This document shows, in pieces, positions 4,961 through 42,627 of a stretch of 48,119 nucleotides of DNA. This DNA is from Thermodesulfobacteriota bacterium (GTDB lineage: Bacteria; Desulfobacterota_D; UBA1144; Nemesobacterales; JAJCZQ01): NCBI GenBank assembly GCA_965203965.1, contig CBDBDR010000009.1, positions 1 through 48,119 on the forward strand, given 5' to 3'. Each line of letters opens with the position of its first letter. Positions within the stretch are counted from its first letter, which is position 1. Both the position numbers and the translations under genes were made by a program. The notes under the pieces were generated by a model that worked only from the letters and a program-made list of their open reading frames with translations, searched no databases and was not told the DNA's origin.

Positions 4961-5773
4961 TTGAGTTTTATTGAATTTGTTATTGAACGTATCCAAATTT
5001 GGGTTAAGCGCCGACAAAATATAGTTCCTTTAACTCAAGATAAAGTATTGCAGAAATACTTTTTTTGTAATATTTTTCGCGAATACGACCGTGGCACAAT
5101 TCACCTTATAAAAAATGTAATAAATAATAAAGATCTTTCTTATAAAGATAAAGTCTTAAATTGTGTCATTTACCGACTTATCAATAATAAATATTTGTAT
5201 GATCAAATCCCAGTGGCAAAAGTAAATTCGTATGACCCGATAGAATATGGCAAAAATTTTGATAATTTCAAAGGTCCATTATGGGGTCCGGCATATAGAA
5301 CTAAAGGTCCTATAGCATACGTTTGTGAATCAGCAAACATTTTAACACAAACTGAATTAAACACCACAAGCTTGCAGACGGATGAAAGGTATTTAACGGA
5401 ATTAAGAAAAATTCGAGGAATTGGAAACTTTATAGCTTATCAAATTTCGTTAGATTTAGCATATTGTACAAGCACTTCATTCACCGTATACGACATTTTA
5501 TACGTTGGTCCAGGGAGCTTTTCAGAACTTAAAGATACTTATGGGAAATTAAAGAATATTCATATAGCCAAAGACATTATTATATATTTAACAAATTTAT
5601 TAAATGACAATTTGTTTTTTTTCCATCGGGAATTTGCAAATTCAGACATTGAACATGCATTATGCGAATATCGTAAGTACAAAAATTTTTATGACGGAAA
5701 AGGTCGTAAACGATTATTTTATAGCAATTTGACTAAAAAGTCAGTCCCTCCGGGTGACATAGAGGGACTTTAA
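4961..5773 (+). CDS. aGPT-Pplase1 / 5-hmdU DNA kinase helical-domain-like DNA hypermodification protein
   Basis: FCNIFREYDRGT, HhH-like LRKIRGIGNFIAYQISLDL, VGPGS and DIEHALCEYRKY. TTG start. Confidence 0.75.
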   Translation: MSFIEFVIERIQIWVKRRQNIVPLTQDKVLQKYFFCNIFREYDRGTIHLIKNVINNKDLSYKDKVLNCVIYRLINNKYLYDQIPVAKVNSYDPIEYGKNFDNFKGPLWGPAYRTKGPIAYVCESANILTQTELNTTSLQTDERYLTELRKIRGIGNFIAYQISLDLAYCTSTSFTVYDILYVGPGSFSELKDTYGKLKNIHIAKDIIIYLTNLLNDNLFFFHREFANSDIEHALCEYRKYKNFYDGKGRKRLFYSNLTKKSVPPGDIEGL

Positions 5774-5895
5774 GACCTATGGACATATATTACTATTAAC
5801 CAAAAAGTTAAAAAAATTTTAAAACTGCTATTTACAAATATGAAAAAACGGTATATAATATAATTAAGAATAAAAAATAATGGAGGTATTTGAAC
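5735..5895 (+). repeat. Dispersed hairpin-promoter-RBS element, copy 1
   Basis: Hairpin AGTCCCTC-N11-GAGGGACT at 5743-5769, TTTACA(5831)-17 bp-TATAAT(5854), GGAGGT before ATG 5896. Confidence 0.92.
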
Positions 5896-6426
5896 ATGAG
5901 ACCAAACACAAAAATCACCGATAGAATTGATCAAAAGTATCGGGAGATTTGGCGGAAAGTTTGGAAGAGTGAATTAGATTTTGTTGTCACTCAACCGGCG
6001 ATTGAATATGAACAATTAGGTCGTACTGGGGGTTTGGCGTATAAAGATAAGATCAAACTTAATTGCATATTGATCAATAATCCCAAATATACCGATGAGG
6101 TAATAGACCAAGTTTTCCCACATGAATTTGCACATGTCGTGGTTAGACAGATGCACGGATGTGGACCAAAATCCCACGGCGTAGAATGGAAAAATGTATG
6201 CAGGGTTATTGGAATTGAACCACGTAGATGTCATACATTTCCACTTGTGGACTGTGGCGTACCAAAACAAAGATTGACAAGATTATTTGAGTATGATTGC
6301 GAAGGTTGTTCGGAAAAATTTGAGTTCGGAGCAAGGGTGTACAATAACATCAAGCGCGGACGTAGATATTCTTGCACGGCGTGTAGAACACAGGTTGATC
6401 CAACCTTGATATCTCAAGTTAGATAA
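5896..6426 (+). CDS. SprT-like zinc metalloprotease with C-terminal Zn ribbon
   Basis: PHEFAH (HEXXH), HGVEWK, CEGC...CTAC. ATG 5896 follows the element RBS. Confidence 0.85.
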   Translation: MRPNTKITDRIDQKYREIWRKVWKSELDFVVTQPAIEYEQLGRTGGLAYKDKIKLNCILINNPKYTDEVIDQVFPHEFAHVVVRQMHGCGPKSHGVEWKNVCRVIGIEPRRCHTFPLVDCGVPKQRLTRLFEYDCEGCSEKFEFGARVYNNIKRGRRYSCTACRTQVDPTLISQVR

Positions 6427-6477
6427 TAATGCCGTTAAAACGGGAGGTATTTAGAATGAAAGTAGGAAAAAGAATTG

Positions 6478-6735
6478 TTCAGACATTGAACATGCATTAT
6501 GCGAATATCGTAAGTACAAAAATTTTTATGACGGAAAAGGTCGTAAACGATTATTTTATAGCAATTTGACTAAAAAGTCAGTCCCTCCGGGTGACATAGA
6601 GGGACTTTAAGACCTATGGACATATATTACTATTAACCAAAAAGTTAAAAAAATTTTAAAACTGCTATTTACAAATATGAAAAAACGGTATATAATATAA
6701 TTAAGAATAAAAAATAATGGAGGTATTTGAACATG
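6478..6735 (+). repeat. 258-bp direct duplicate of 5641-5898 (3' end of the aGPT-like gene plus element copy 2)
   Basis: Identical by eye at offset 837. Hairpin at 6580-6606, promoter at 6668-6696. Confidence 0.92.
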
Positions 6736-6987
6736 GACGACTTAAAGGAATACAACTTAAAGGGCTACTTTATTAACTGGCGAGACAAAGTCCAAGTACG
6801 ATTTGAAGATGGAACAACCGCGGATTTAGAAATGGATTTTTCGGGCAAAATTATTGACGATTGCGACGGGAAACTGACAATAGCGGGATGCCGAGCGTCA
6901 AATAAGACCGCAAAGTTATTTGAAATTAAGGCGGATAAAGACTTATTCGTAGAGAAAATAACTTTTACGAGATGGTCCGCAATCTAA
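6733..6987 (+). CDS. Hypothetical cassette protein (84 aa)
   Basis: ATG directly after the element RBS GGAGGT. Confidence 0.7.
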   Translation: MDDLKEYNLKGYFINWRDKVQVRFEDGTTADLEMDFSGKIIDDCDGKLTIAGCRASNKTAKLFEIKADKDLFVEKITFTRWSAI

Positions 6988-7061
6988 AAGCGGGATATTG
7001 TGACAAATAATTGGCTCAATTCCAATTATCTTGCATACTTGAAATAAATGTAAAAATACTA

Positions 7062-7090
7062 TTTACGTTTATGTAAAAATAGTATATAAT
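7062..7090 (+). promoter_or_regulatory. sigma70-type promoter (element variant)
   Basis: TTTACG-17 bp-TATAAT with AT-rich upstream tract, then AGGAG RBS. Confidence 0.7.
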
Positions 7091-7126
7091 ATAATTAAGA
7101 GATTAAAAAATAGGAGATATCCGAGA

Positions 7127-7657
7127 ATGAGACCAAACACAAAAATCACCGATAGAATTGATCAAAAGTATCGTGAGATTTGTCGGAAAGTTTGGAAGAG
7201 TGAACTAGATTTTATTGTTACTCGTCCAAAAATTGAATGTGTTAGATTGGGTACTTGCGCGGGTGAGGCGGCTGGAAAAGGGGAGATCATCCGTTTGAAT
7301 TGTGAGTTGTTAAATAATCCCAAGTACACGAATAAAATAATTGACGAAACTTTCCCGCATGAATTTGCGCATATTGTTGTCCTTCAACATTGAGGCCGCG
7401 GGCCTAAACCACATGGAAAAGAATGGAAACAAGTATGTAAGATAATTGGAATTGAACCAATTATTTGTCACGATATCCCGCTTTTAGATTGCGGACCATC
7501 TCGTAAACGTATGACTAAATTATTTATCCACGAGTGTAAGTGCGGAATAACTCATGAATTTGGAGCGAATATCCGTGAAAAAGTAGCTATGGAACGCCGG
7601 AAATGTGGAAATTGTAATAAAAGAATAGAAATTAAAAATACGGAGAGAATAAGATGA
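7127..7657 (+). pseudogene. Second SprT-like paralogue interrupted by one in-frame TGA (7391-7393)
   Basis: The same frame continues past the TGA as GRGPKPHGKEWKQVCKIIGIEP...CKCG...CGNC to TGA 7655-7657, collinear with 5896-6426. Confidence 0.8.
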
Positions 7658-8055
7658 AAGTAGGAAAAAGAATTGTATGGAAAGAAGCAGATATGACTTT
7701 TAGTGGTGTGATCCGAGAAGTTATAAACATATCTCCCACATCTGATCCAAGCTATATTTTGAAAATTGAATTAGATCATGGTAAAAAAATAGATCGTGGG
7801 ATCGGAACATTCGATAAGTTTGTAGTGATTTCTAAATTTTATCGTGATGGAAAATTGCATTCCTATAGTGAATCGTCAGTTCAGACTTGTGAACAAGCAG
7901 AACATTTAGTCAATATTCCGCCAAAAGAATTAGAAGGATCTTTAGACATGTGTATAAAAACTTTTAAGCTCGTAAGAATTGACCGTACTGAAAAGCAGTT
8001 GATGGAAAAAAAATTTATTTGCGGAGGTATCAAATATGGAAACAAGAAAGATTAA
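7654..8055 (+). CDS. Hypothetical protein (VGxRIxW family, see 19462 and 36015)
   Basis: 133-aa ORF, ATGA overlap with the preceding frame. Confidence 0.7.
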   Translation: MKVGKRIVWKEADMTFSGVIREVINISPTSDPSYILKIELDHGKKIDRGIGTFDKFVVISKFYRDGKLHSYSESSVQTCEQAEHLVNIPPKELEGSLDMCIKTFKLVRIDRTEKQLMEKKFICGGIKYGNKKD

Positions 8056-8293
8056 CGGGATCAAAATTAAAACCGGTGATCTTATAGAATTTCGGGTTTC
8101 ACCGAGAAATCGGGAATTTGTAAACAAGCAATTTGACGGGTTTAAATTCATAAGCGTTATAGATAACAAAGCAATAATGAATGCCCCTGGGTCTATCGTA
8201 TTTTGTGAAAAACTTTCTTACTTAAGGAAAGTAGGAATAAAACAATTTGGTCCTATTTCTTTTAAAAAGTATAAAGAACTTTCTAAAAGTTAA
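8036..8293 (+). CDS. Hypothetical protein, KINGIK family copy 1
   Basis: GGAGGT RBS. Clear paralogue of 16479-16742 and 42628-42915. Confidence 0.8.
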   Translation: METRKINGIKIKTGDLIEFRVSPRNREFVNKQFDGFKFISVIDNKAIMNAPGSIVFCEKLSYLRKVGIKQFGPISFKKYKELSKS

Positions 8294-8312
8294 AAAAATT
8301 TTAAAAATACTA

Positions 8313-8341
8313 TTTACATTTATGAAAAAACGGTATATAAT
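8313..8341 (+). promoter_or_regulatory. sigma70-type promoter (element promoter half)
   Basis: TTTACA-tttatgaaaaaacggta-TATAAT followed by the shared leader and GGAGGT. Confidence 0.85.
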
Positions 8342-8377
8342 TATATTGAGAACAAAAAATAATGGAGGTATTTAGAC

Positions 8378-8680
8378 ATGAAAAGAACTAAATTAATATC
8401 GGCATTAAATGTAAGTAATTATTCATGCGTAACAGTTTCCGTCAAAACAAAAAATGACCGCGCGTACATTAAGAATTGGAAAGATGTAACTATTTATTTT
8501 GGCTTTGAAAATAACAAAATGATTAAACTAGTTGCATGGAGCCATTTAAAAAAATCTACCGATCTTAAAAATGCCATTCACGCTGAGAGAATAATAAAAA
8601 AGATCATAAAAGATCTTAAGATAATTCCAAAAAGTACTGAGTCATTACTTGATAATACGTATATTGAAGTAGCTTTTTAA
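8378..8680 (+). CDS. Hypothetical cassette protein (100 aa)
   Basis: ATG directly after the element RBS. Confidence 0.75.
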   Translation: MKRTKLISALNVSNYSCVTVSVKTKNDRAYIKNWKDVTIYFGFENNKMIKLVAWSHLKKSTDLKNAIHAERIIKKIIKDLKIIPKSTESLLDNTYIEVAF

Positions 8681-8697: not shown

Positions 8698-8811
8698 ATG
8701 GAGCATATAATTATAGATAGAATGATTGTAAAGTTGGACAAATTACTCTTAAATTTTAACATCAATAACTTTTTAAGGCAAGAAAGTCCAATAATAGCAG
8801 CTCTTTTATGA
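8698..8811 (+). CDS. 37-aa ORF running into the first unit of the 113-bp array
   Basis: Strong RBS GGAGGTGA; MEHIIIDRMIVKLDKLLLNFNINNFLRQESPIIAALL. Confidence 0.5.
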   Translation: MEHIIIDRMIVKLDKLLLNFNINNFLRQESPIIAALL

Positions 8812-9775
8812 CCTTACTTCATAACGATTCTCAAATTTGAACCTTGTAACATGTATCGCTCTTAAATTTTAACATCAATAACTTTTTAAGGCAAGAAAGT
8901 CCAATAATAGCAGCTCTTTTATGACCTTACTTCATAACGATTCTCAAATTTGAACCTTGTAACATGTATCGCTCTTAAATTTTAACATCAATAACTTTTT
9001 AAGGCAAGAAAGTCCAATAATAGCAGCTCTTTTATGACCTTACTTCATAACGATTCTCAAATTTGAACCTTGTAACATGTATCGCTCTTAAATTTTAACA
9101 TCAATAACTTTTTAAGGCAAGAAAGTCCAATAATAGCAGCTCTTTTATGACCTTACTTCATAACGATTCTCAAATTTGAACCTTGTAACATGTATCGCTC
9201 TTAAATTTTAACATCAATAACTTTTTAAGGCAAGAAAGTCCAATAATAGCAGCTCTTTTATGACCTTACTTCATAACGATTCTCAAATTTGAACCTTGTA
9301 ACATGTATCGCTCTTAAATTTTAACATCAATAACTTTTTAAGGCAAGAAAGTCCAATAATAGCAGCTCTTTTATGACCTTACTTCATAACGATTCTCAAA
9401 TTTGAACCTTGTAACATGTATCGCTCTTAAATTTTAACATCAATAACTTTTTAAGGCAAGAAAGTCCAATAATAGCAGCTCTTTTATGACCTTACTTCAT
9501 AACGATTCTCAAATTTGAACCTTGTAACATGTATCGCTCTTAAATTTTAACATCAATAACTTTTTAAGGCAAGAAAGTCCAATAATAGCAGCTCTTTTAT
9601 GACCTTACTTCATAACGATTCTCAAATTTGAACCTTGTAACATGTATCGCTCTTAAATTTTAACATCAATAACTTTTTAAGGCAAGAAAGTCCAATAATA
9701 GCAGCTCTTTTATGACCTTACTTCATAACGATTCTCAAATTTGAACCTTGTAACATGTATCGCTCTTAAATTTTA
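8746..9775. repeat. Perfect tandem array, 9 x 113 bp plus a 13-bp partial unit
   Basis: Units start at 8746, 8859, 8972, 9085, 9198, 9311, 9424, 9537 and 9650; final CTCTTAAATTTTA at 9763-9775. Confidence 0.95.
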
Positions 9776-9790: not shown

Positions 9791-10597
9791 ATGTTATTCA
9801 TACATCCCGTTAGAAATTCTCCACGTGATCAAATTGTTTCAAAAGAATTCCCCGTTGAAATTGAAAATAACATTGTAACGGTTCAAAACGATTTTGAAAA
9901 TATAAATATTTTATGGATGTGGAGAAGCGCGGGATTAGTCGATGTAAGTTCTCCGAATATTTCTTTCTTTTGGGATACCGATCAATTATACTATAATTCT
10001 TATGGCGCATTTGTCACTCAAGAAAAATCAATTGAATTTGCAAGCAACCCGGATTTTGATTGGATAATAGCATCTCCCGTAATCGGAGAAGTAAATCCTA
10101 TTCGTGCTTTCAAAGCTACGTTAGCTCCGTCAAGGAGAATAAAAAGAAGTGAAATCGGATTTTATCAAGTGTCTATCCGAAACGAAAAGATATTTGAATT
10201 TACAATCCCACTTAACAATGAGCCGGATAAAGACTTTGTAGAATTACTTGAACGTTTATCTGGACTTAACAATTTCGCCGTTTTACCATCTGGGCGTATT
10301 ACTAAGTTTGTAGATACGGAATACCCATATTTACAACCGGCGTTTATCCGAAATATGGCGGTGACACGATTTAGAGGATTTGAAGCTTTTCAAGGCGTGT
10401 ATGCACACGGTGTTAGTGGACAAATAACATTTGGAGAAGTTTCATTCGTGCACGACATAACAGTAGAACAAACAATATGTAATACCCCGCCGCCAGTACA
10501 AATAAATAGTATTTGGACAATAAACGGGAACGTTGTATTAATAGATAATAAAGTTATAATTGCTCCGGAGAATATAAATGAAGGAATCACAGCTTGA
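9791..10597 (+). CDS. Probable virion/tail protein
   Basis: 268-aa ORF upstream of the tail-fibre-like gene; function from context only. Confidence 0.45.
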   Translation: MLFIHPVRNSPRDQIVSKEFPVEIENNIVTVQNDFENINILWMWRSAGLVDVSSPNISFFWDTDQLYYNSYGAFVTQEKSIEFASNPDFDWIIASPVIGEVNPIRAFKATLAPSRRIKRSEIGFYQVSIRNEKIFEFTIPLNNEPDKDFVELLERLSGLNNFAVLPSGRITKFVDTEYPYLQPAFIRNMAVTRFRGFEAFQGVYAHGVSGQITFGEVSFVHDITVEQTICNTPPPVQINSIWTINGNVVLIDNKVIIAPENINEGITA

Positions 10598-10850
10598 AAA
10601 AAAATGTTGTTTGATCGCGAAACAATATCAATGGTGGCAAACTAAAATAAATCCATCGTCTAAAAATGGAATCCCTGATAGATTGTTTGTCAAAAATGGA
10701 AAATATGTTTGGGTTGAATTTAAGAAAAAAAATGGTAAACGATCAAAAATTCAAATGTTCCGTCAAACGGAAATGAAAAAATACGGGATGGAGATATTTA
10801 CAATTGACAACTTTTTAGATTTTTGCAATTTACTTTCAATTCAAATATAA
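10578..10850 (+). CDS. VRR-NUC domain nuclease
   Basis: MKESQLE...GIPDRL...WVEFK...SKIQ, a PD-(D/E)XK pattern typical of stand-alone phage VRR-NUC. Confidence 0.88.
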   Translation: MKESQLEKKCCLIAKQYQWWQTKINPSSKNGIPDRLFVKNGKYVWVEFKKKNGKRSKIQMFRQTEMKKYGMEIFTIDNFLDFCNLLSIQI

Positions 10851-16383: not shown

Positions 16384-16450
16384 CTAAAAAGTCAGTCCCT
16401 CCGGGTGACATAGAGGGACTTTAAGACCTATGGACATATATTACTATTAA
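16384..16450 (+). repeat. Element copy 3 (hairpin half only; probable terminator)
   Basis: Hairpin at 16394-16420 directly after the endolysin stop; no promoter half follows. Confidence 0.88.
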
Positions 16451-16478
16451 CTATTTGATCATTTTTGATCATTTTTGA

Positions 16479-16742
16479 TCAACTATTTCTTTTAGAAAGT
16501 TCTTTATACTTTCTAAAAGAAATAGGACCAAATTGTTTTATTCCTACTTTCCTTAAGTATGAAAGTTTTTCATAAAATATTATAGCTCCAGGGGCGTCCA
16601 GTATTGCTTTGTTATTTATGACATTTCCAAATTTAAATCCGTCAAATTGCTTGTTTACAAATTCCCGATTTCCCGGTGAAACTTGGAATTCTATAAGATC
16701 ACCGGTTTTAATCTTGATTCCATTAATTTTTATTGTTGTCAT
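16479..16742 (-). CDS. Hypothetical protein, KINGIK family copy 2
   Basis: Start moved to ATG 16742 (MTTIKINGIK), after the element RBS. Confidence 0.8.
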   Translation of the reverse strand: MTTIKINGIKIKTGDLIEFQVSPGNREFVNKQFDGFKFGNVINNKAILDAPGAIIFYEKLSYLRKVGIKQFGPISFRKYKELSKRNS

Positions 16743-16953
16743 TCTAAATACCTCCATTATTTTTTGTTCTCAATATAATTATATACCGTTTTTTCATATT
16801 TGTAAATAGCAGTTTTAAAATTTTTTTAACTTTTTGGTTAATAGTAATACACATCTGTAAGTCTTAAAGTGCCTCTATGTCACCCGGAGGGACTGACTTT
16901 TTAGTCAAATTGCCATAAAATAATCGCTTACGGCCTTTTCCGTCATAAAAATT
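16743..16953 (-). repeat. Element copy 4 (full, minus strand) carrying about 55 bp of the aGPT-like gene 3' end
   Basis: Promoter 16778-16806, hairpin 16868-16894. 16900-16953 reverse-complements to a diverged copy of about 5684-5737. Confidence 0.88.
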
Positions 16954-19330: not shown

Positions 19331-19356
19331 ATCTTGTAACATATTATCACTCTTAC

Positions 19357-19420
19357 GGTAATATACATACATCCATAGATCTCAAAGTCCCTCTATGTCA
19401 CCCGGAGGGATTGACTTTTT
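19357..19420 (-). repeat. Element copy 5 (hairpin half, minus orientation; probable bidirectional terminator)
   Basis: Hairpin 19386-19412 followed by GACTTTTT on the + strand, between convergent genes. Confidence 0.82.
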
Positions 19421-19461
19421 GATTATACTTGCTTCCGGATTGCAATTTCAAAAAGAATTAT

Positions 19462-19686
19462 TTAACCAATACATCTGATTTCAAAAATATCATTTTTATG
19501 CTCAAACGTAAATAATAATAAATTACATTTTAAGAATGAAAGGTCACGTTTTATTATTCCACGACCAATTGTTTCTATAATTGCCATTTCGTCAATTATT
19601 TCTACTATTTTACCAGAAATTCTTACATCTCCATCGTCCCATGCTATACGCGATCCGACATTAACTCTTGCATTATATTGTATCAT
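19462..19686 (-). CDS. Hypothetical cassette protein (VGxRIxW family)
   Basis: ATG 19686 after the element RBS; VGSRIAW...ISGKIVEII resembles 7654-8055. Confidence 0.7.
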   Translation of the reverse strand: MIQYNARVNVGSRIAWDDGDVRISGKIVEIIDEMAIIETIGRGIIKRDLSFLKCNLLLFTFEHKNDIFEIRCIG

Positions 19687-19838
19687 AGTGTTAAATACCT
19701 CCATTATTTTTTATTCTTAATTATAATTATATACCATTTTTTCATATTTGTAAATAGTATTTTTACATTTATTTTAACTTTTTAATAGTAATATATGTCC
19801 ATAGGTCTTAAAGTCCCTCTATGTCACCCGGAGGGACT
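19687..19838 (-). repeat. Element copy 6 (full, minus strand)
   Basis: Promoter 19726-19754; hairpin 19812-19838 lies inside the 3' end of the glycosyltransferase gene. Confidence 0.88.
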
Positions 19839-21186: not shown

Positions 21187-21441
21187 TTATGCCATGAAAA
21201 CAAAGTCACAAGGATTGCTTTTTCCGACGTGTATAGTATTGGAAGGTTTAAGTATGGGGTAGTGGTATTTGTTTCGAAGAAATATATACGAGTCGATGTT
21301 GTCTTTCACCCGTTTTTCAACGCAATAATAATCACTGCCAACCGCTACACATTTAGGCATGTCTACCGGGGTGGCTACCCAAACACACTTGTTGTCCCTT
21401 ATCTCACAATTAATTATTACGAGATACTTTGGTCTTTTCAT
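21187..21441 (-). CDS. HicB-like protein (N-terminal domain only)
   Basis: KYLVII...WVATPVDMPKCVAVG...KDNIDSYI...PILKP follows the HicB pattern; recognised by eye. Confidence 0.5.
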   Translation of the reverse strand: MKRPKYLVIINCEIRDNKCVWVATPVDMPKCVAVGSDYYCVEKRVKDNIDSYIFLRNKYHYPILKPSNTIHVGKSNPCDFVFMA

Positions 21442-21447
21442 GTTGTT

Positions 21448-21476
21448 ATTATATACTGCTTTTACAGATGTGTAAA
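21448..21476 (-). promoter_or_regulatory. sigma70-type promoter (element variant), apparently leaderless
   Basis: TTTACA-catctgtaaaagcagta-TATAAT, nearly identical to 42564-42592; ATG lies 6 nt downstream. Confidence 0.75.
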
Positions 21477-24585: not shown

Positions 24586-24740
24586 TCAGTCTCTCCGAGC
24601 GGGATAGAGGCGCTTTAAGACTTACAGATGTGTATTACTATTATCCAAAAACTTTAAAATAAATGTAAAAATACTATTTACATTTATGAAAAAACGGTAT
24701 ATAATTATATTGAGAACAAAAAATAATGGAGGTATTTAGA
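24586..24740 (+). repeat. Element copy 7 (degenerate hairpin, intact promoter)
   Basis: AGTCTCTC...GAGGCGCT at 24588-24614; the downstream part matches 34923-35048. Confidence 0.85.
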
Positions 24741-26990
24741 ATGAAAGAATTAACAAAAAAAGAACTTGGAAAACCAGTCGCAATTGAGCAGCTCCCGTTT
24801 GTTTCTTATGACCATCCAATTTCTCGCGGTGTTTGTCATGGATGTTATGGAGAAACTGAAAACTATTCGGTTTCCAGATGTGACAAATGTACTGGAAAAT
24901 AATTTCAAAAAATTTTAAAAATACTATTTACATTTATGAAAAAACGGTATATAATTATATTGAGAACAAAAAATAATGGAGGTATTTAGAATGAAAGAAT
25001 TAACAAAAAAAGAACTTGGAAAACCAGTCGCAATTGAGCAGCTCCCGTTTGTTTCTTATGACCATCCAATTTCTCGCGGTGTTTGTCATGGATGTTATGG
25101 AGAAACTGAAAACTATTCGGTTTCCAGATGTGACAAATGTACTGGAAAATAATTTCAAAAAATTTTAAAAATACTATTTACATTTATGAAAAAACGGTAT
25201 ATAATTATATTGAGAACAAAAAATAATGGAGGTATTTAGAATGAAAGAATTAACAAAAAAAGAACTTGGAAAACCAGTCGCAATTGAGCAGCTCCCGTTT
25301 GTTTCTTATGACCATCCAATTTCTCGCGGTGTTTGTCATGGATGTTATGGAGAAACTGAAAACTATTCGGTTTCCAGATGTGACAAATGTACTGGAAAAT
25401 AATTTCAAAAAATTTTAAAAATACTATTTACATTTATGAAAAAACGGTATATAATTATATTGAGAACAAAAAATAATGGAGGTATTTAGAATGAAAGAAT
25501 TAACAAAAAAAGAACTTGGAAAACCAGTCGCAATTGAGCAGCTCCCGTTTGTTTCTTATGACCATCCAATTTCTCGCGGTGTTTGTCATGGATGTTATGG
25601 AGAAACTGAAAACTATTCGGTTTCCAGATGTGACAAATGTACTGGAAAATAATTTCAAAAAATTTTAAAAATACTATTTACATTTATGAAAAAACGGTAT
25701 ATAATTATATTGAGAACAAAAAATAATGGAGGTATTTAGAATGAAAGAATTAACAAAAAAAGAACTTGGAAAACCAGTCGCAATTGAGCAGCTCCCGTTT
25801 GTTTCTTATGACCATCCAATTTCTCGCGGTGTTTGTCATGGATGTTATGGAGAAACTGAAAACTATTCGGTTTCCAGATGTGACAAATGTACTGGAAAAT
25901 AATTTCAAAAAATTTTAAAAATACTATTTACATTTATGAAAAAACGGTATATAATTATATTGAGAACAAAAAATAATGGAGGTATTTAGAATGAAAGAAT
26001 TAACAAAAAAAGAACTTGGAAAACCAGTCGCAATTGAGCAGCTCCCGTTTGTTTCTTATGACCATCCAATTTCTCGCGGTGTTTGTCATGGATGTTATGG
26101 AGAAACTGAAAACTATTCGGTTTCCAGATGTGACAAATGTACTGGAAAATAATTTCAAAAAATTTTAAAAATACTATTTACATTTATGAAAAAACGGTAT
26201 ATAATTATATTGAGAACAAAAAATAATGGAGGTATTTAGAATGAAAGAATTAACAAAAAAAGAACTTGGAAAACCAGTCGCAATTGAGCAGCTCCCGTTT
26301 GTTTCTTATGACCATCCAATTTCTCGCGGTGTTTGTCATGGATGTTATGGAGAAACTGAAAACTATTCGGTTTCCAGATGTGACAAATGTACTGGAAAAT
26401 AATTTCAAAAAATTTTAAAAATACTATTTACATTTATGAAAAAACGGTATATAATTATATTGAGAACAAAAAATAATGGAGGTATTTAGAATGAAAGAAT
26501 TAACAAAAAAAGAACTTGGAAAACCAGTCGCAATTGAGCAGCTCCCGTTTGTTTCTTATGACCATCCAATTTCTCGCGGTGTTTGTCATGGATGTTATGG
26601 AGAAACTGAAAACTATTCGGTTTCCAGATGTGACAAATGTACTGGAAAATAATTTCAAAAAATTTTAAAAATACTATTTACATTTATGAAAAAACGGTAT
26701 ATAATTATATTGAGAACAAAAAATAATGGAGGTATTTAGAATGAAAGAATTAACAAAAAAAGAACTTGGAAAACCAGTCGCAATTGAGCAGCTCCCGTTT
26801 GTTTCTTATGACCATCCAATTTCTCGCGGTGTTTGTCATGGATGTTATGGAGAAACTGAAAACTATTCGGTTTCCAGATGTGACAAATGTACTGGAAAAT
26901 AATTTCAAAAAATTTTAAAAATACTATTTACATTTATGAAAAAACGGTATATAATTATATTGAGAACAAAAAATAATGGAGGTATTTAGA
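24666..26990 (+). repeat. Perfect tandem array, 9 x 250 bp (promoter + RBS + zinc-finger ORF) plus a 10th promoter
   Basis: ATGs at 24741, 24991, 25241, 25491, 25741, 25991, 26241, 26491 and 26741; units identical by eye. Confidence 0.95.
24741..24902 (+). CDS. 53-aa CxxC-x11-CxxC zinc-finger protein (first of 9 identical copies; last at 26741-26902)
   Basis: MKELTKKELGKPVAIEQLPFVSYDHPISRGVCHGCYGETENYSVSRCDKCTGK; own promoter and GGAGGT RBS; absent from the ORF track. Confidence 0.85.
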   Translation: MKELTKKELGKPVAIEQLPFVSYDHPISRGVCHGCYGETENYSVSRCDKCTGK

Positions 26991-26991
26991 T

Positions 26992-27482
26992 ATGAGCAGA
27001 ATTGATTAAAAATAAGAACTTGGAAAACCAGTGAGTATGTTCAAGATTTATTGGACGGAATTGAATGGGAAAAAAGCATCGCGATAAGTTCATGATTAAC
27101 ATGAGAACATTTGGATCAGTAGAACTGAAAACGGAATTCGGTGTCCGGTTGCTGTGCAACTGCAGCATTACAAGCAATAAATGATCGCCCATTTAGTAGC
27201 AATGAAATTGGAGTTAGAAAAGACAGGGCTGCAGCACTAAATGAAGATACAGGAGACGTAGATAAATTTGAAGAGGTTATAAATTTACTACGAATTGGTG
27301 ATCTTAATAACTTCTTTATAGAGGCAGATGAAAAATTGTGCGGCGAGAACTACGAAATGATAAACACAATTGTTGACGATTGGGACGATTTGTGGAGGCT
27401 TAACCGGAGCAATTGGGAAAGTGAATCTGAACTGAATACAATACGAAAGTTTCAAAAAGTTCTGATTTCAAAAGGTCTTTAA
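26992..27482 (+). pseudogene. Copy of the 158-aa gene at 35050-35526 with a garbled 5' part (probable consensus artefact)
   Basis: Identical to the 35050 gene from about 27146 on; the first 155 bp carry indels matching the zinc-finger repeat unit. Confidence 0.7.
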
Positions 27483-27581
27483 TGATTAAATAATTTCAAA
27501 AAATTTTAAAAATACTATTTACATTTATGAAAAAACGGTATATAATTATATTGAGAACAAAAAATAATGGAGGTATTTAGA

Positions 27582-27743
27582 ATGAAAGAATTAACAAAAA
27601 AAGAACTTGGAAAACCAGTCGCAATTGAGCAGCTCCCGTTTGTTTCTTATGACCATCCAATTTCTCGTGGTGTTTGTCATAGATGTTATGGAGAAACTGA
27701 AAACCATTCGGTTTCCAGATGTGACAAATGTACTGGAAAATAA
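27582..27743 (+). CDS. Variant 10th copy of the 53-aa zinc-finger gene
   Basis: Three substitutions: one synonymous, G34R and Y42H. Promoters at 27518 and 27768 flank it. Confidence 0.85.
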   Translation: MKELTKKELGKPVAIEQLPFVSYDHPISRGVCHRCYGETENHSVSRCDKCTGK

Positions 27744-27831
27744 TTTCAAAAAATTTTAAAAATACTATTTACATTTATGAAAAAACGGTATATAATTATA
27801 TTGAGAACAAAAAATAATGGAGGTATTTAGA

Positions 27832-28185
27832 ATGGGATATTGGGAAAGAAAATCGGGTACGGAATTACCATCTCCGAGTTTGAGATTTTCCGCTAAGTTG
27901 AACGCGGTTCAAGCGGCAACAGTTCTCGCTGGGGGAATTGGAAAAAAATATACTGCAATATTTCTACAAGTTGCAGAAGATGAGGGATTTACAAAATACG
28001 TTTTGGAGAATTCCATTTTGATAGATGATGGAAATGGGGGAGATAAAATAGTTCTTGAATGTACGGAAGATCATACGAGATATTCCATATCTCGTTCGGA
28101 ATGTTTAAACAATAATGGACGCCCAACACTCAAAGGAGTACGCGCCGCATTTAAAAGTTATTTTAACAGCCGACGAGGATTATAA
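27832..28185 (+). CDS. Hypothetical cassette protein (117 aa)
   Basis: ATG 27832 (MGYWERK) after the element RBS. Confidence 0.75.
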   Translation: MGYWERKSGTELPSPSLRFSAKLNAVQAATVLAGGIGKKYTAIFLQVAEDEGFTKYVLENSILIDDGNGGDKIVLECTEDHTRYSISRSECLNNNGRPTLKGVRAAFKSYFNSRRGL

Positions 28186-28243
28186 CAAAAATGCTTAAAT
28201 TTATATTTGAATTGTTTGTTATTTTAGTATTATTAAGTCTTTT

Positions 28244-29500: not shown

Positions 29501-29523
29501 ATCAATGTGTTATAATATTGATC

Positions 29524-31619: not shown

Positions 31620-31658
31620 CTATTTACTTTTGAATTTAGAGTGTTAAAATTTATTATT

Positions 31659-33734: not shown

Positions 33735-33748
33735 TTTAGGAGGCGAGT

Positions 33749-34889: not shown

Positions 34890-35049
34890 AAAGTCAGTCC
34901 CTCCGGGTGACATAGAGGCACTTTAAGACTTACAGATGTGTATTACTATTATCCAAAAACTTTAAAATAAATGTAAAAATACTATTTACATTTATGAAAA
35001 AACGGTATATAATTATATTGAGAACAAAAAATAATGGAGGTATTTAGAT
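34881..35049 (+). repeat. Element copy 8
   Basis: Hairpin 34896-34922, promoter 34985-35013, GGAGGT. Confidence 0.9.
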
Positions 35050-35526
35050 ATGAGCAAATTGATTAAAAATAAACCAAGTGAGTATGTTCAAGATTTATTG
35101 GACGGAATTGAATGGGCAAAAAAGCATCGCGATAAGTTCATGATTAACATGAGAACATTTGGATCAGTAGAAGAAAACGGAATTTGTGTCGGTTGCTGTG
35201 CAACTGCAGCATTACAAGCAATAAATGATCGCCCATTTAGTAGCAATGAAATTGGAGTTAGAAAAGACAGGGCTGCAGCACTAAATGAAGATACAGGAGA
35301 CGTAGATAAATTTGAAGAGGTTATAAATTTACTACGAATTGGTGATCTTAATAACTTCTTTATAGAGGCAGATGAAAAATTGTGCGGCGAGAACTACGAA
35401 ATGATAAACACAATTGTTGACGATTGGGACGATTTGTGGAGGCTTAACCGGAGCAATTGGGAAAGTGAATCTGAACTGAATACAATACGAAAGTTTCAAA
35501 AAGTTCTGATTTCAAAAGGTCTTTAA
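35050..35526 (+). CDS. Hypothetical cassette protein (158 aa, CVGCC motif)
   Basis: Flanked by element promoters at 34985 and 35562; duplicated at 26992-27482. Confidence 0.8.
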   Translation: MSKLIKNKPSEYVQDLLDGIEWAKKHRDKFMINMRTFGSVEENGICVGCCATAALQAINDRPFSSNEIGVRKDRAAALNEDTGDVDKFEEVINLLRIGDLNNFFIEADEKLCGENYEMINTIVDDWDDLWRLNRSNWESESELNTIRKFQKVLISKGL

Positions 35527-35625
35527 TGATTAAATAATTTCAAAAAATTTTAAAAATACTATTTACATTTATGAAAAAACGGTATATAATTATATTGAGA
35601 ACAAAAAATAATGGAGGTATTTAGA

Positions 35626-35922
35626 ATGTATAGAGATCCAATACTTTTAATTCATGCAACCGCACAGTATCTGAAAGTTGCAAAAAAGAAAAAAGAAAAG
35701 TTAAGTCTCAAATAAAAGACTTATTAAACCGGGGAGCTGATCCTAATAAAACTCAAGGGTGTTATCTGACACCCTTGAAAATGGCAATTGATTCCGGCGA
35801 CGAAAACTTAATTGCATTATTTCAATCTAAATAGATTGAAATATCATAACGGGTATAATCCTAACAAACGCCGCGGTTGTCTTAATACAGCGGTAGAAAT
35901 TGCCATAAACAATAAACAATAA
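35626..35922 (+). pseudogene. Frameshifted ankyrin-repeat gene
   Basis: ATG 35626 after the element RBS stops after 29 aa. The -1 frame reads LLNRGADPNKTQGCYLTPLKMAIDSGDENLIALF. A second degenerate repeat, NGYNPNKRRGCLNTAVEIAI, follows in another frame. Confidence 0.65.
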
Positions 35923-36014
35923 AGAGTATAAGTTAGTTAGATTTTTGATTTTATCTGAGAAGTTAAATAAATCTGAAATCTTAAAAGAATTTGAAAAAAT
36001 ATAAGGAGATAAAA

Positions 36015-36266: not shown

Positions 36267-36282
36267 TTTTAAGGAGGTGTTT

Positions 36283-36693
36283 ATGATTAAATTAGAGTTA
36301 ATAGATATGGGAAAAAGTTATTCATTTGGCGTGTATGTACCAAGTTTATTGTATGAGCGGTATTTCGACAAAACATGCAAAAAAGTTAAGTGCCGACTGC
36401 ATTGGGTGAAAGATATCCCGGTGACGGCAATAAAGGAATATAATGACACAATAACTGATGTTGAAATTCCTAAATTATCTTTATTTCATGCCGCGACTCC
36501 AAATTTTTCGTGGTCGGGTTATCTTTATACGGACATAACTAGCCGATTAAGTTCATGGAGTGAATTTTTGGATGTGAGAATGAACATGAGCATATTAAAA
36601 ATGTTGCTCCATCCTCAAGATCAAGCGTGGTTTAAGGATATTCTTTATTTACGGAGATTTTCTACATCTCGTGTAAGAACTGACATTCAGTAA
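36283..36693 (+). CDS. Hypothetical protein
   Basis: AAGGAGGTG RBS before ATG 36283. Confidence 0.7.
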   Translation: MIKLELIDMGKSYSFGVYVPSLLYERYFDKTCKKVKCRLHWVKDIPVTAIKEYNDTITDVEIPKLSLFHAATPNFSWSGYLYTDITSRLSSWSEFLDVRMNMSILKMLLHPQDQAWFKDILYLRRFSTSRVRTDIQ

Positions 36694-38815: not shown

Positions 38816-41341
38816 ATGGCAGAAGTTAGAGAACGTGTTACAATTAAATTTGCGGGAGATGATAAAGAACTCCGTAAGTCTATTCGCGATGTTGATAAAC
38901 AGATGTCTGACTCTCAACGTAAAGCCGGAGATGCTTATAAAAAATCGGGTCAAACTCATTCGCGAGTCGTATCTAAAAAGAAAAGAGAAGTTGGAGCATT
39001 AGAACGTTCTTGGAGTGCATTAATAAAAACAATTGGCGGATTAACAATTGGTTTTTCAGCAGCTTCTGTCGGGTTTATAAAATTATATAGAACACAAGAA
39101 CAAGCCGAGCGTCAATTAAACGCCGCGTTAAAAGCAGTAGGATTCCGTGTTGACAAAAATGTTTCTAAAATTCAAGCATACGCCGATAAGTTACAATCAG
39201 TTTCGGGGATTGGAGATGAAGCGTCTTTGCGTGTATCGTCATGGTTAGTACGGTATGCTCAATTGAATGAAGATCAAATAGTCCCGATGTTGGATACGAT
39301 AGCAAATGTATCGGCCTCTTCTCGTCGTGGACTAGAAGGATTTGAACGAATCGGGGAACGACTGGCCAGATCTTTGGCCGATCCATTAACGGCAATGGCT
39401 CAATTTGAAAGATACGGTGTATCAATTACAAAGCAAGAAGAGGAATACATACGCCAGCTTGTTGAAGGAAATAAAACTCAACAAGCGCGAGAAATTTTAA
39501 TTAATAAATTGGCGAAAGCGAATAAGGGAGCATTGGACGCGGCTATTGGGGGGACGACCCGATTTCGTACTATTACTGCGGACATCGGGGATATTGGAGA
39601 AAAAATAGGGAAAATTTTAACTAATGTATTTGAGCCTGCTACGATACGTGTTCAAAAGTTTGTGGGCAGTCTTAAAAATGATAAAGAGCTTTTTGATAGA
39701 GTTCGTGAAGACATTGAAGCTATTTCAAAGGCGGTTGGCGGATTAATTAGAATAACGTTTTCAGCATTTGCCGGGCCTATTGGGAAAATTTTAACAATAT
39801 TTAAAGGTCAAATTAATGATGTACTAAAATCTGTTAGATCTAACATTGATAAGACAATTAATATTTTAGAAAAATTCGCACGCGTCGCAGCTGGAATTTT
39901 TATTGTTACAAAAGTAAAGGCTTGGGGAACTGCTTTAGTGTTAGCGCTTAAAGGAGTTCGCGCGGGGTTTACCCTCGCACGTATTGCGGCATCGGCTTTT
40001 TGGGGGAGTGTAACTTTGGGATTAGGATTAGTTTTAGCATATTTGCCGGAAATTATTAATTTGGTCAAAAATAATTTTACGGCTATGAGCGAGTTGTTAT
40101 CTGGTGTTTTTCGTGCTATCGGATTTGGAGTTCAATACAACTTGGCAGTAGTTAAAAAAACGTTTTTTTCAGTGTTGGCAGAAATTGTTGAAAAAATTGC
40201 GAGTCTTCAAGATATTAAAGGTGTGCCGGATATTATTTCACAAGAGACGGTTGATAAATTTAGTGGGTTGTCAAAAAAGTATACGGATGATCTTTCTAAC
40301 TTAAGAGATAAAATACAAGATAACGCCAAAGGAATACGTCAAGCCGCGTCAAAATTGTCTCTTGATTTTTCATCCCCCAAGGTTGTAGATATTTTAGATG
40401 ATAAAGATACGGGAGATGGAACTGACACGGGAGATGGAACTGACACGGGAGATGGAACTGACACGGGAGATGGAGAAATTTCTCCACGAACAGATCTTTT
40501 TTCATTAACCCCTGAGCAAGTGAACCGTCAAATTGACTTGCTCAAATTAGCATTAGAAGGAAAAGAACAAGCCGAGATTGAATTTTGGAATAGAGAACAA
40601 GAGCTTAAAAAGTTACAACGGGAAATAGAAATTGCTGAAGAGTTATCCCATAAGGGAAAATTAAATGACGCTGAAACTCAACATTTGGCGCAAATGAAAA
40701 AATTGCACGATTTAAACCATAAACAATTAGAAAAAGATAAACGTGCTTATTATAATAGAACTTTGAAAGACAAACAAAAATTTGGACTTTCAGAATTGCA
40801 ATCAACTTTTGGAACATTAAGTTCTATTATTGGTTTAGAGGGTCGCGCCGCAAAACTTTCATCCAGTATTGGAAAAGCGCGAGCAATCCAGGGGTTAATA
40901 ACACAATTAAGAACCGCCGTTCCGAGCGTATTCACAAAAACATTAGACGCTATGTCGTGGATTCCAATTCCCGGCGCCGCACATGCGATAGCTGCTGCCG
41001 CCGCGGGAATTACTTCAGCGACAGCGACACGCGGTGTTGCGTCGGCAAAGTCTGTTCCGGAGTTGAATAGAACAGTAGCTTTAGCGAAAGGTGGAATGAT
41101 TGACGGAAATCCGGCGTTTGGGGATAATTATCGCACAATATTGCAAGCTGGGGAAGTCGTAGTTCCAAGAGAAAATTTTAACGAATTGAAAGAAAAGATA
41201 ATTAGAGATAATTTAGCAAATCCCCCAGTATTATCCGAGTCAGATGCTCCACGAGAGATTGATTTGTTAGTTGAGTTCAAAAGTGATGCTGCTAAATTAC
41301 TTCAAGAAATTCGCGAGGAAAGAGAGGTATTGGACTATTGA
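38816..41341 (+). CDS. Tail tape measure protein
   Basis: 841 aa, helical, QEQAERQLNAALK, LADPL..M..FERYGV, C-terminal LAKGG...GEVVVP. Confidence 0.9.
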   Translation: MAEVRERVTIKFAGDDKELRKSIRDVDKQMSDSQRKAGDAYKKSGQTHSRVVSKKKREVGALERSWSALIKTIGGLTIGFSAASVGFIKLYRTQEQAERQLNAALKAVGFRVDKNVSKIQAYADKLQSVSGIGDEASLRVSSWLVRYAQLNEDQIVPMLDTIANVSASSRRGLEGFERIGERLARSLADPLTAMAQFERYGVSITKQEEEYIRQLVEGNKTQQAREILINKLAKANKGALDAAIGGTTRFRTITADIGDIGEKIGKILTNVFEPATIRVQKFVGSLKNDKELFDRVREDIEAISKAVGGLIRITFSAFAGPIGKILTIFKGQINDVLKSVRSNIDKTINILEKFARVAAGIFIVTKVKAWGTALVLALKGVRAGFTLARIAASAFWGSVTLGLGLVLAYLPEIINLVKNNFTAMSELLSGVFRAIGFGVQYNLAVVKKTFFSVLAEIVEKIASLQDIKGVPDIISQETVDKFSGLSKKYTDDLSNLRDKIQDNAKGIRQAASKLSLDFSSPKVVDILDDKDTGDGTDTGDGTDTGDGTDTGDGEISPRTDLFSLTPEQVNRQIDLLKLALEGKEQAEIEFWNREQELKKLQREIEIAEELSHKGKLNDAETQHLAQMKKLHDLNHKQLEKDKRAYYNRTLKDKQKFGLSELQSTFGTLSSIIGLEGRAAKLSSSIGKARAIQGLITQLRTAVPSVFTKTLDAMSWIPIPGAAHAIAAAAAGITSATATRGVASAKSVPELNRTVALAKGGMIDGNPAFGDNYRTILQAGEVVVPRENFNELKEKIIRDNLANPPVLSESDAPREIDLLVEFKSDAAKLLQEIREEREVLDY
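40406..40474 (+). repeat. In-frame 18-bp tandem repeat (DTGDGT, about 4 copies) in the tape measure gene
   Basis: GACACGGGAGATGGAACT repeated. Confidence 0.9.
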
Positions 41342-42465
41342 GATGTGAATTTTTTCTTATTCCCAAATATCGTTCGGATGTCTTTGGTGAAAAACAAAAT
41401 ATTACACGAGATGTTTTAACACCACCTAAGATTTCTTTACGTAGAGAGTCATCTCAGTGGTCCTTTGGATTTTTTGTATCTGACATTTTGAAATTAGAAT
41501 TACAAAATGTTAATAACGTGTATTCGGATGATCATCCGGATTCCGTTTTCAAAGGCGGGATAAACGGCGCAAGGTTAGAAATATCTTTAGACGGTGTTGT
41601 TTTTTGGCACGGAATTGCTACGGAAAAAGGATATAACAATGATTTTCAAAAACAAAAAGTAATAATACCGTTTCGGTCCCCTGATGCTATTTTAAATGAA
41701 ATTTCAACTAATTTTACAATTATCCGGAATGGACAAACAATATCTCAAGCGATTGCTTCTATTTTATCGTTTGAAGACTTAAGTGACTTCCCGTTAATAG
41801 ATAGCATTAACTCTTCAATTGTTATTTCTGACGTGAGTTCTTTAATACGAAATAACAATTCGAGTAAGGGGGTAATTCAAGAATTACTGAGGGCGATTGA
41901 TGGAATACTAACGTTTCGGCATGTGCAGCAAGATTTTCTTTTATTCGATAGAAGTTTAGGATATGATGACGGGGTAGAATTATCAAAAATATCTAAGTGT
42001 TTTGAAATACGTTCAAAAGATTCTGGCCATAATCAAATATTTAACCGCATTGTAATAAATGAAGTTAATTCTTGGGAAATTGCAAGATCAATTTTAGCAT
42101 TTGGATTGCGTCCGATTAATTTAGAGATTGCGTGGGTTTCATCGGTGCCAATACTCCGACTTTTGGCTTTGAATATTATTGAGAAATTGTCTTTTCCAAG
42201 AGAAAGAATTGTTGTGGTGATCCCCGCAGTAATTGATGAAGGTGAGATCATTCCGCCTTTGAAAGATATTTTCATCGGAAAAATTTTACAATGTCATTTT
42301 TCTGACGAAATTGCGAATCAAAATGTATATGGCAATACGACATTCGGAAGTTTATTTTTTGAGCGAGCAAACCGTCCCGCAGTATCGGGAGTTTATTATA
42401 TAGATCAAATTTCTTATGATTTAGCTTATGACTTAATTGAAATTGCAATCCGGAAGCGAATATAG
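41338..42465 (+). CDS. Probable tail tip / hub protein
   Basis: 375 aa coupled to the tape measure gene; position-based call. Confidence 0.55.
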   Translation: MRCEFFLIPKYRSDVFGEKQNITRDVLTPPKISLRRESSQWSFGFFVSDILKLELQNVNNVYSDDHPDSVFKGGINGARLEISLDGVVFWHGIATEKGYNNDFQKQKVIIPFRSPDAILNEISTNFTIIRNGQTISQAIASILSFEDLSDFPLIDSINSSIVISDVSSLIRNNNSSKGVIQELLRAIDGILTFRHVQQDFLLFDRSLGYDDGVELSKISKCFEIRSKDSGHNQIFNRIVINEVNSWEIARSILAFGLRPINLEIAWVSSVPILRLLALNIIEKLSFPRERIVVVIPAVIDEGEIIPPLKDIFIGKILQCHFSDEIANQNVYGNTTFGSLFFERANRPAVSGVYYIDQISYDLAYDLIEIAIRKRI

Positions 42466-42468
42466 CAT

Positions 42469-42627
42469 AAAAGTCAGTCCCTCCGGGTGACATAGAGGGA
42501 CTTTAAGACCTATGGACGTATATTACTATTAACCAAAAAGTTAAAATAAATGTAAAAATACTATTTACATATCTGTAAAAGCAGTATATAATATAATTGA
42601 GAACAAAAAATAATGGAGGTATTTAGA
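42469..42627 (+). repeat. Element copy 9
   Basis: Hairpin 42476-42502, promoter 42564-42592, GGAGGT. Confidence 0.9.

Follow-up and report, generated by a model that had tools for sequence, protein, structure and literature searches.

The closest described counterparts of the element analysed here are the PeSL (promoter-early stem-loop) elements of T4-like phages, in which an AT-rich tract and a sigma70-like promoter (consensus TTTACW-N17-TAYWAT in PST and T4) end in a Shine-Dalgarno sequence and ATG, with an upstream stem-loop in PST and nt-1 (PMC2839356, PMC4122927). According to the portions of these reports used here, PeSL circles form by crossover at different points (PMC2839356); circles and a dimer were shown by experiment, and re-insertion was inferred from genome pairs (PMC2839356, PMC4122927). 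Gene accordions, in which a small gene is present in tandem identical copies through recombination between flanking homologies, are described for T4, where segmental amplification of dmd-tifA starts from 6-10-bp microhomologies (PMC9391042), and for T6, where amplification is driven by SegB (PMC13096335). Repeated start-of-gene modules with inverted repeats also occur in non-T4 tailed viruses, as the PeSL-like motif of halovirus HGTV-1 (PMC3950731) and the SAS/ESAS of cluster K mycobacteriophages (PMC3203893), for which recombination was suggested; SAS measure 13 bp and ESAS arms 17 bp, and the cited part of that report describes no sigma70 promoter and suggests movement at most (PMC3203893). 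Further parallels, as cited in one PeSL report, are lambdoid morons, each a lone gene that lies among late genes and has a promoter of its own, and the conserved Botstein linkers between modules of lambdoid phages (PMC2839356).

The window, that is the whole 48,119-nucleotide stretch analysed, is one circular 48-kb genome of an uncultured phage. It encodes a gpA terminase and a lambda-type portal and is a small lambda-type genome, not a T4-like myovirus. Repeated DNA makes up 16.6% of it. No tyrosine or serine recombinase match (PF00589 or PF00239) was obtained on the contig, and none of the 55 ORFs of the window matched a tyrosine integrase; several phage ORFs carry no family assignment. The phage has no DNA match at E 1e-3 to the other 16 contigs of its bin and hence no spacer or prophage link to that bin, whose main contig encodes two tyrosine recombinases and is a candidate host only. 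Late units start with their own TATAAT-N6-8-ATG sites. Some junctions of an odd kind have no element, a point against the element as vehicle of gene movement: one leads from the helicase into the head module, and at another VRR-NUC lies between the 268-aa and tail-fibre genes.

The element, a sigma70-type promoter with an AT-rich upstream tract as judged by sequence, is present in 22 promoter copies, composed of seven full hairpin-promoter-RBS elements and 15 promoter-only copies, plus two hairpin-only copies (Table 1). The sequence-only reading had described a 150-160 bp element, which holds for the seven full copies and not for the other 17. All nine hairpins that it named (5743, 6580, 16394, 16868(-), 19386(-), 19812(-), 24588, 34896 and 42476) exist, as do all 22 promoter halves. 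TTTACA-N17-TATAAT occurs 22 times in the window, against a mean of 0.055 (maximum 2) in 200 dinucleotide shuffles; one of these matches, at 22032, does not belong to the element copies, and at 7062 the copy has TTTACG in place of TTTACA. The promoter-plus-GGAG pattern was observed 21 times versus 0.005 in shuffles. The proposed GGAGGT-ATG ending stands for 21 of the 22 copies, which carry a Shine-Dalgarno sequence and start codon at the 3' end, and fails at 21476(-), where GGAGG is missing. The full elements comprise six distinct sequences with unique flanks and 79-95% pairwise identity. The 3' border of the element is constant at the ATG, where identity had been said to stop, whereas the 5' border is ragged, with 15, 39, 59 or 102 bp of upstream core-gene ends common to copies. 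Each cassette unit has its own promoter, and most cassettes lack a flanking hairpin because 15 copies are promoter-only and two hairpin-only.

Islands of cassettes lie between terminase and portal, neck and tail, and lysis and a 759-aa gene, matching the three interrupted regions reported earlier. The recurring genes were likewise borne out: the 158-aa gene stands at two sites, the 53-aa gene occurs ten times, and an 85-95-aa orphan family and an SprT-like gene are represented by three and two alleles. The orphan alleles occupy three loci, two directly behind full elements, with 70-74% amino-acid identity to the first allele; the SprT-like alleles share 74% DNA identity. SprT-like and ankyrin-like domains occur in three cassette genes (Ank_4 match at E 7e-4, below cut-off), and the element otherwise precedes orphan genes. 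The clusters of all seven island proteins looked up hold this contig alone, and neither the 53-aa nor the 158-aa protein received a named family from the ESM Atlas. The element at 5743..5898 gives the HMUDK-family gene (4961-5773) its last codons and stop, and the element at 19838-19684 does the same for the alpha-glucosyltransferase gene (21166-19808). Homologues of this glycosyltransferase have another ending, an acidic-FF tail; the element therefore replaced the end of the gene, and an origin of the hairpin as leftover glycosyltransferase coding sequence was rejected on this ground. Ahead of the copy at 6478..6735 stand the 22 opening bases of the gene at 7654. An inverted 81-bp SprT piece lies at 6961-7041, and a 194-bp patch is common to both glucosyltransferase genes.

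Table 1. Element copies, cassettes and associated features of the phage genome.
Position	Strand	Feature
5743..5898	+	Full element: hairpin, AT tract, -35/-10, GGAGGT, ATG
5896..6426	+	Cassette gene for 176-aa protein with SprT-like zinc metalloprotease domain
6478..6735	+	Full element with 102 captured bp of HMUDK 3' end, together an exact 258-bp copy of 5641-5898
6733..6987	+	84-aa cassette gene, no family above cut-off
7039..7393	+	Promoter-only copy (TTTACG) and second SprT-like allele, stopped prematurely
8036..8293	+	85-aa allele of three-allele orphan family
8285..8680	+	Promoter-only copy and 100-aa orphan gene
8746..9775		113-bp unit repeated identically in tandem (9.1 copies), element absent
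16394..16451	+	Hairpin-only copy, 11 bp past endolysin stop
16479..16953	-	Full element (16894-16740) with 87-aa allele and 59 captured bp of HMUDK 3' end
19350..19451	-	Decayed hairpin-only copy (19412-19386) with 39 captured bp from the 3' end of tail gene 41338-42465
19462..19838	-	Full element (19838-19684) and 74-aa gene
21187..21476	-	84-aa gene with diverged promoter copy lacking GGAGG
24588..24743	+	Full element, diverged hairpin, 6 bp past terminase large subunit stop
24677..26926	+	Nine identical 250-bp units, each with promoter, RBS and gene for 53-aa four-cysteine protein
26897..27584	+	Second copy of promoter and 158-aa cassette, flanked by two promoter copies
27518..28185	+	Variant 53-aa unit (3 changes), promoter-only copy, 117-aa orphan gene; SNF2 helicase gene next
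34896..35628	+	Full element 7 bp past last neck gene, followed by intact 158-aa gene (35050-35526) and promoter-only copy
35626..35833	+	Ankyrin-like cassette gene, broken by frame changes in A-rich run
42476..42915	+	Full element 11 bp past last tail-module gene, with 95-aa allele
44108..44179	+	Weak, diverged promoter copy before cytidylyltransferase gene; absent from the sequence-only reading
45318..46881	+	DUF2800 nuclease and DUF2815 (Gp2.5-like) genes

The 53-aa gene forms nine identical units and one variant unit. The amplified 250-bp unit is bounded by about 94 bp of promoter homology, has both ends inside promoter copies and contains no hairpin; it is present as tandem identical copies bounded by homology, as in a viral gene accordion. 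The 577-bp cassette of promoter and 158-aa gene stands at two sites 8 kb apart, again with both ends of the relocated cassette inside promoter copies and no hairpin at the second site. Its two copies are identical over 577 bp except for a blend matching the 53-aa unit, and ATG spacing includes an extra T at both sites, unlike the 53-aa units. Recombination between promoter copies likely put one cassette at a second site and multiplied another about tenfold. Exchange is also recorded within the element: across 147 core columns of the six distinct elements, 78 of 190 pairs among 20 informative sites are incompatible, adjacent incompatible pairs number one versus 7.8 in permutations (p about 1e-4), and the minimal crossover intervals at 45-73, 96-119 and 121-126 lie in the AT-rich tract and promoter. 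Within these six sequences the element copies are recombinant mosaics, by crossover or gene conversion alike. Core-gene ends of 102, 59 and 39 bp were captured at three hairpins, which fits circles or duplications joined illegitimately. The repeated promoter/RBS module probably drives early genes, and we favour the view that it also acts as a portable homology arm for general recombination.

Alternatively, the element would be a shared regulatory signal, spread once illegitimately and kept alike by gene conversion, with cassette moves as rare by-products in a recombination-prone genome and no special part for the element as a vehicle. The mosaic patterns are compatible with gene conversion too, and exchange took place outside the element, in the inverted SprT piece and the glucosyltransferase patch. 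The 113-bp array reached the same ninefold level with only a 13-bp direct repeat as its boundary; having arisen without the element, it counts against the element as a special vehicle. T4 likewise amplifies genes from microhomologies (PMC9391042). Against a mere signal, the 250-bp unit and the relocated 577-bp cassette each begin and end inside promoter copies, and three alleles of one orphan gene occupy three loci, two of them directly behind full elements. On this balance we regard the shared-signal explanation as improbable, though it deserves some weight.

The arrays and the duplicate cassette could instead be assembly products, either several variants collapsed into one sequence or free circles of high copy number incorporated in the contig. 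Both arrays consist of about nine perfect units and neither is spanned by a contig piece, contigs break at repeats, and region 26992-27150 is a consensus blend of the 158-aa cassette with the 53-aa unit to which no contig was matched. The possibility of misassembly was checked by contig depth in 24400-36400, with all runs from one study. The 53-aa unit reached 14.5, 13.8, 12.0 and 8.3 times single-copy depth in four of four runs, figures that overlap within noise and do not distinguish an array from free circles, and the 158-aa gene 2.2, 2.3 and 2.0 times in all three runs giving a figure; depth is noisy, with single-copy records of 3.7-10.2 in run X1. Contigs agree with the assembled order on both sides of the 53-aa array, a 7,106-nt contig in two of four runs spans 27805-34910 in the same order, and differences of 5-21%, together with unique flanks, separate the six distinct elements. 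We regard an assembly origin as very unlikely. Neither a different gene order nor a circle nor a copy-number change from sample to sample appeared in these contigs. Contig ends found loose behind the 53-aa stop and at 35721 (4/4 runs), at first sight variant orders, were rejected as such, being absent from the bin; their depths in X1:X2:X3, about 8:6:5 and 9.5:7:6.5 by hand arithmetic, do not track the phage (7.3:2.2:9.7), and they are therefore probably short matches from other abundant DNA. Two further joints, single low-depth contigs away from elements, were also rejected as alternative orders.

The hairpin is an 8-11-8 inverted repeat with a nearly invariant loop. The form proposed earlier, AGTCCCTC-N11-GAGGGACT, is exact in five of the nine hairpins and imperfect in the other four, a stem pair being broken in three (16894-, 34896 and 24588) and an outer mismatch present in one (19412-); no compensatory stem change was found among copies. 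A same-strand hairpin lies 0-11 bp from the end of six of seven core units, as delimited by us. This position is suggestive of a terminator, a role that is weakly supported: against it, the hairpin has z = -1.1, an 11-nt loop and a short U run, and was not called by terminator prediction. An Rfam search gave no real match, and stops in all three hairpin frames, lost in the 24588 copy, were taken as chance. A site-specific, integron-like system with the hairpin as recombination site, served by an unrecognised phage or host recombinase, would suit the almost invariant loop, the phage ORFs without family and the two tyrosine recombinases on the bin's main contig, but is highly unlikely given that the amplified unit and the second site of the relocated cassette have no hairpin, the stem is broken in three of nine, no recombinase matched on the contig, and no crossover interval mapped inside the hairpin (positions 1-27, with few variable sites).

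Integron cassettes are single genes that change place, probably via circles, and are mostly promoterless under one promoter. Here each cassette has its own promoter, crossovers are spread across the promoter half with no fixed point, and no integrase match was found; the integron-like label of the sequence-only reading is thus unsupported. Its broader proposal, integrase-free shuffling and amplification by homologous recombination, agrees with the mosaics, the depth-backed array and duplicate, and the lack of a recombinase match. Nothing observed here links DUF2800/DUF2815, the suggested driver, to the element: the module is widespread, the DUF2800 protein matching 1040 of 50,697 phage records, and four control phages with a DUF2800 match hold 0-2.3% repeated DNA versus 16.6% here. 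The two proteins are candidate general recombination helpers.

The comparison with PeSL proved apt, since the system works like PeSL, by homologous recombination at repeated predicted early promoters with mosaic copies. Beyond the shared tract, promoter and 3' end, the likeness to PeSL as reported extends to orphan genes behind the element, degraded half copies, no dedicated integrase and crossovers at several points, and less clearly to an upstream stem-loop, which 7/22 promoter copies have here. It differs in its gpA terminase and lambda-type portal and in lacking a DNA match to any of the 50,697 phage records, and is therefore PeSL-like, not a PeSL member. Copies lie between all core modules here and mainly in hyperplastic regions in the PeSL descriptions cited, and here one cassette shows ninefold amplification and another has two locations. 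The T4 and T6 accordions, as reported, were selected in the laboratory in the face of a known defence and go back to microhomologies or to a homing nuclease (PMC9391042, PMC13096335), whereas the unit here is one promoter and one gene, with about 94 bp of homology, in a natural sample. Searches for a close relative, in databases that may lack records very near the window, came back negative: no exact hairpin match was found in viral, genome or metagenome contigs, and the terminase, the capsid alignment, the 158-aa protein and the three-allele family as queries returned no locus. The closest capsids are 30-34% identical, the terminase matches in none of 60 genomes related to the bin, and the 158-aa protein has no homologue except its own second copy. 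The literature searched, mostly without subscription papers, held no siphovirus report of a PeSL-like element whose cassette was amplified or relocated.

In the homology-arm reading that we prefer, host RNA polymerase would start at each copy, and the hairpin would mark the 3' end of the upstream core transcription unit, so that slots between modules would tolerate insertions. A circle of promoter and gene would be excised when two direct copies cross over at any point of their 94-150 bp of homology, unequal exchange would duplicate the unit, and crossover with a third copy would insert the cassette at another slot. Rare illegitimate joins would found new copies and take core-gene ends along. 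Exchange would probably be catalysed by the ordinary DUF2800/Gp2.5-like module of the phage or by RecA of the host, with no dedicated recombinase. For the amplified 53-aa protein, counter-defence is a candidate function. In lambda genetics, stuffer DNA provides size compensation in a unit-length packager; by analogy the arrays may be such DNA, alongside a dosage reading.

The design is known from T4-like phages; here a small lambda-type genome has it between its core modules. A bolder and doubtful extension takes a single linker family as the basis of the entire genome: each core module would be a self-contained transcription unit ending in the same hairpin-promoter linker, early-gene cassettes would travel between these slots as circles, and the slots would also serve as natural accordions, at present with about ten gene copies for a counter-defence zinc-binding protein; if true, PeSL re-insertion would be caught in the act and the Botstein linker model realised inside one small phage. 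The predicted PeSL products, namely mosaic linkers, a two-site cassette, a ninefold array and captured ends, stand together in one genome, which extends the PeSL-type design to a small lambda-type phage and suggests gene accordions in wild phage populations.

Joining the ends of contig C9 with a one-base overlap reopens the DNA polymerase frame (592 codons), and the contig is thus a complete circular phage genome. Its GC content is 34.7%, against 39.1% for the main contig of the bin, and it has no DNA matches with the bin's other 16 contigs. The genome encodes a gpA-type terminase, a lambda-type portal, a protease-capsid fusion, a tape measure, and an endolysin; a primase, an SNF2 helicase, and DUF2800 and DUF2815 proteins; and DNA-modification enzymes (thymidylate synthase, HMUDK, and two alpha-glucosyltransferases, 40% identical to each other), with zero matches to tyrosine or serine recombinases.

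All hairpin and promoter positions named in the sequence-only reading are present. The promoter pattern occurs 22 times, versus 0.055 in shuffles, and all 24 element matches in the bin lie on this contig. The proposed 150-160-bp form, comprising hairpin, promoter, and RBS, holds for seven copies; 15 others are promoter-only and two hairpin-only. Pairwise identity among the six distinct full copies is 79-95%. Repeats of at least 50 nt make up 16.6% of the genome, or 11.0% once the arrays are collapsed, and the same measure gives 0-2.3% in five control phages, four of them selected because they match DUF2800 and the fifth because it matches the gpA terminase. One of these controls, Bacteroides phage SJC25, carries a 61-78-bp repeat in three copies (23740-23800, 29138-29214, and 32966-33043), in or close to intergenic gaps.

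Features of contig C9 by position
Position	Feature	Detail
566-5773, 19808-21166, 43107-44584	DNA hypermodification set	Thymidylate synthase, two alpha-glucosyltransferases, HMUDK, kinase-like and cytidylyltransferase-like genes
2245-2438 / 20058-20251	194-bp patch, 84.5% identical	Common to the two glucosyltransferase genes; long identical peptide
6443-6735	Junction	HMUDK end joined straight to first 22 bases of gene at 7654
6961-7041 / 7430-7510	81-bp inverted repeat, 95%	84-aa gene end is an inverted piece of second SprT allele
8746-9775	113-bp unit, 9.1 identical copies	No element; 13-bp bounding repeat only
9779, 10852, 17037, 22055, 29511	TATAAT, then ATG 6-8 bases on, opening structural modules	TGT precedes TATAAT at three sites; candidate leaderless late promoters
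10578-10850, 28244-29500	VRR-NUC, SNF2 helicase	Among structural genes, away from replication module; nuclease and helicase genes are neighbours in comparison phages L002 and L004
16985-17028	Strong canonical terminator, z -4.9	Ahead of 759-aa gene; unrelated to element hairpin
21500-21900	Few genes, many GAACTAA repeats in both orientations	Terminase genes follow; possible origin or packaging region
24660-24700 and others	TGTAAA-N7-TTTACA and TTTACA-N4-TG(T/A)AAA inverted repeats across -35 box of promoter copies	Possible operators for Cro-like protein (46878-47087)
26927, 34985	577-bp promoter+158-aa cassette	Promoter copy on either side at both
26992-27150	Frameshifts of second 158-aa copy	Equal to 53-aa unit at matching offsets; covered by no contig of the four runs
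35626-35960	Broken ankyrin-like gene behind promoter copy	Followed by second decayed ankyrin-like piece

A mosaic test over 147 core columns with 20 informative sites revealed all four combinations in 78 of 190 site pairs, including just one adjacent pair versus 7.8 in permutations (p about 1e-4). Minimal crossover intervals fall at 45-73, 96-119, and 121-126; on this scale the hairpin occupies 1-27 and the -35 box begins its mark at 90. Exchange is therefore spread across the AT tract as well as the promoter. No interval lies in the hairpin, where variable sites are few, and exchange could also occur there.

The 250-bp promoter+53-aa unit is present in nine identical copies and one variant with three changes. 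Contigs of four runs (one study, at most two samples) were aligned over 24400-36400. Relative to the mean of the single-copy records shown, depth reached 14.5, 13.8, 12.0, and 8.3 times for the 53-aa unit and 2.2, 2.3, and 2.0 times for the 158-aa gene in the three runs giving a figure, ratios that are rough, since within one run single-copy depth can differ as much as threefold, and that do not equal copy number. Depth excludes a single copy of either. Run contigs end at element copies, so they would not reveal alternative gene orders or circles. The frameshifted stretch of the second 158-aa copy is read as a consensus blend, which may stem from reads with differing unit counts or from misplaced reads. 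Because the amplified unit has no hairpin, the promoter half is enough for amplification. The arrays could be neutral, serve capsid filling, an idea from lambda genetics, or raise dosage; dosage is the favoured reading of the 250-bp unit, since in every copy the gene is intact and has its own promoter and RBS.

The genome holds further products. The 85-95-aa gene has three alleles at three loci, and gene ends are captured 5' of hairpins (HMUDK, 102 bp and 59 bp; a tail gene, 39 bp). The HMUDK junction has the form expected of an illegitimately closed circle or duplication. Two core genes take their last codons and stop from the element, and in a glucosyltransferase it replaces the acidic tail ending FF of homologues. 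Ankyrin genes are reportedly found in sponge phages (10.1101/608950).

For six of the seven core units, as delimited here, a hairpin on the same strand lies 0-11 bp from the unit's end, which suggests that the hairpin is a 3'-end signal; the seventh (759 aa) faces a hairpin at 55 bp. A strong-terminator role is countered by weak folding on the gene strand (z = -1.1), an 11-nt loop, a short U run, a terminator scan that did not call the element hairpin, and broken stems in three of nine copies. Also against it, compensatory stem changes were absent among hairpin copies, in which two changes preserved G-U pairs.

Exchange also occurs away from the element, as the inverted SprT piece and the glucosyltransferase patch indicate, the latter suggesting conversion between paralogues. 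Some displaced genes have one or both borders without the element. The 113-bp array, as assembled, follows a 37-codon ORF, folds weakly, has a minus-strand promoter-like site in its units, and has no Rfam match; it may be an array of small RNAs or serve as stuffer DNA. The genome is recombination-prone overall, and of all its homologies the element is the longest and the one repeated most often.

DUF2815 is a T7 gp2.5-type ssDNA-binding protein (PMC5686142), grouped with single-strand annealing proteins and part of a widespread duf2800-gp2.5-polA module (PMC8093625). It is a fair candidate recombination enzyme, but no tie to the element emerges, because the DUF2800 protein matches 1040 phage records and the controls lack repeats of this kind.

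The earlier comparison with PeSLs (promoter-early stem-loop cassettes of T4-like phages) stands: parts are shared, copies recombined at differing points, and the genome lacks a tyrosine or serine recombinase match. PeSLs have the same parts, lack a dedicated integrase, and yield circles and a dimer with crossovers at different points (PMC2839356); those of phage PST share the TTTACW-N17-TAYWAT consensus and upstream stem-loop, with groupings among structural genes being rarer (PMC4122927). Similar motifs occur in halovirus HGTV-1 (PMC3950731) and cluster K mycobacteriophages (PMC3203893), and small genes are amplified in tandem in T4 (PMC9391042) and T6 (PMC13096335). The element is PeSL-like in its working but is neither a sequence relative of PeSLs nor a T4-type member, and three integron tests came out negative, which leaves the label integron-like unsupported. 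The contig, a small orphan phage, carries a genuine PeSL-like system of unusual density, one that holds genomic products of relocation and amplification.
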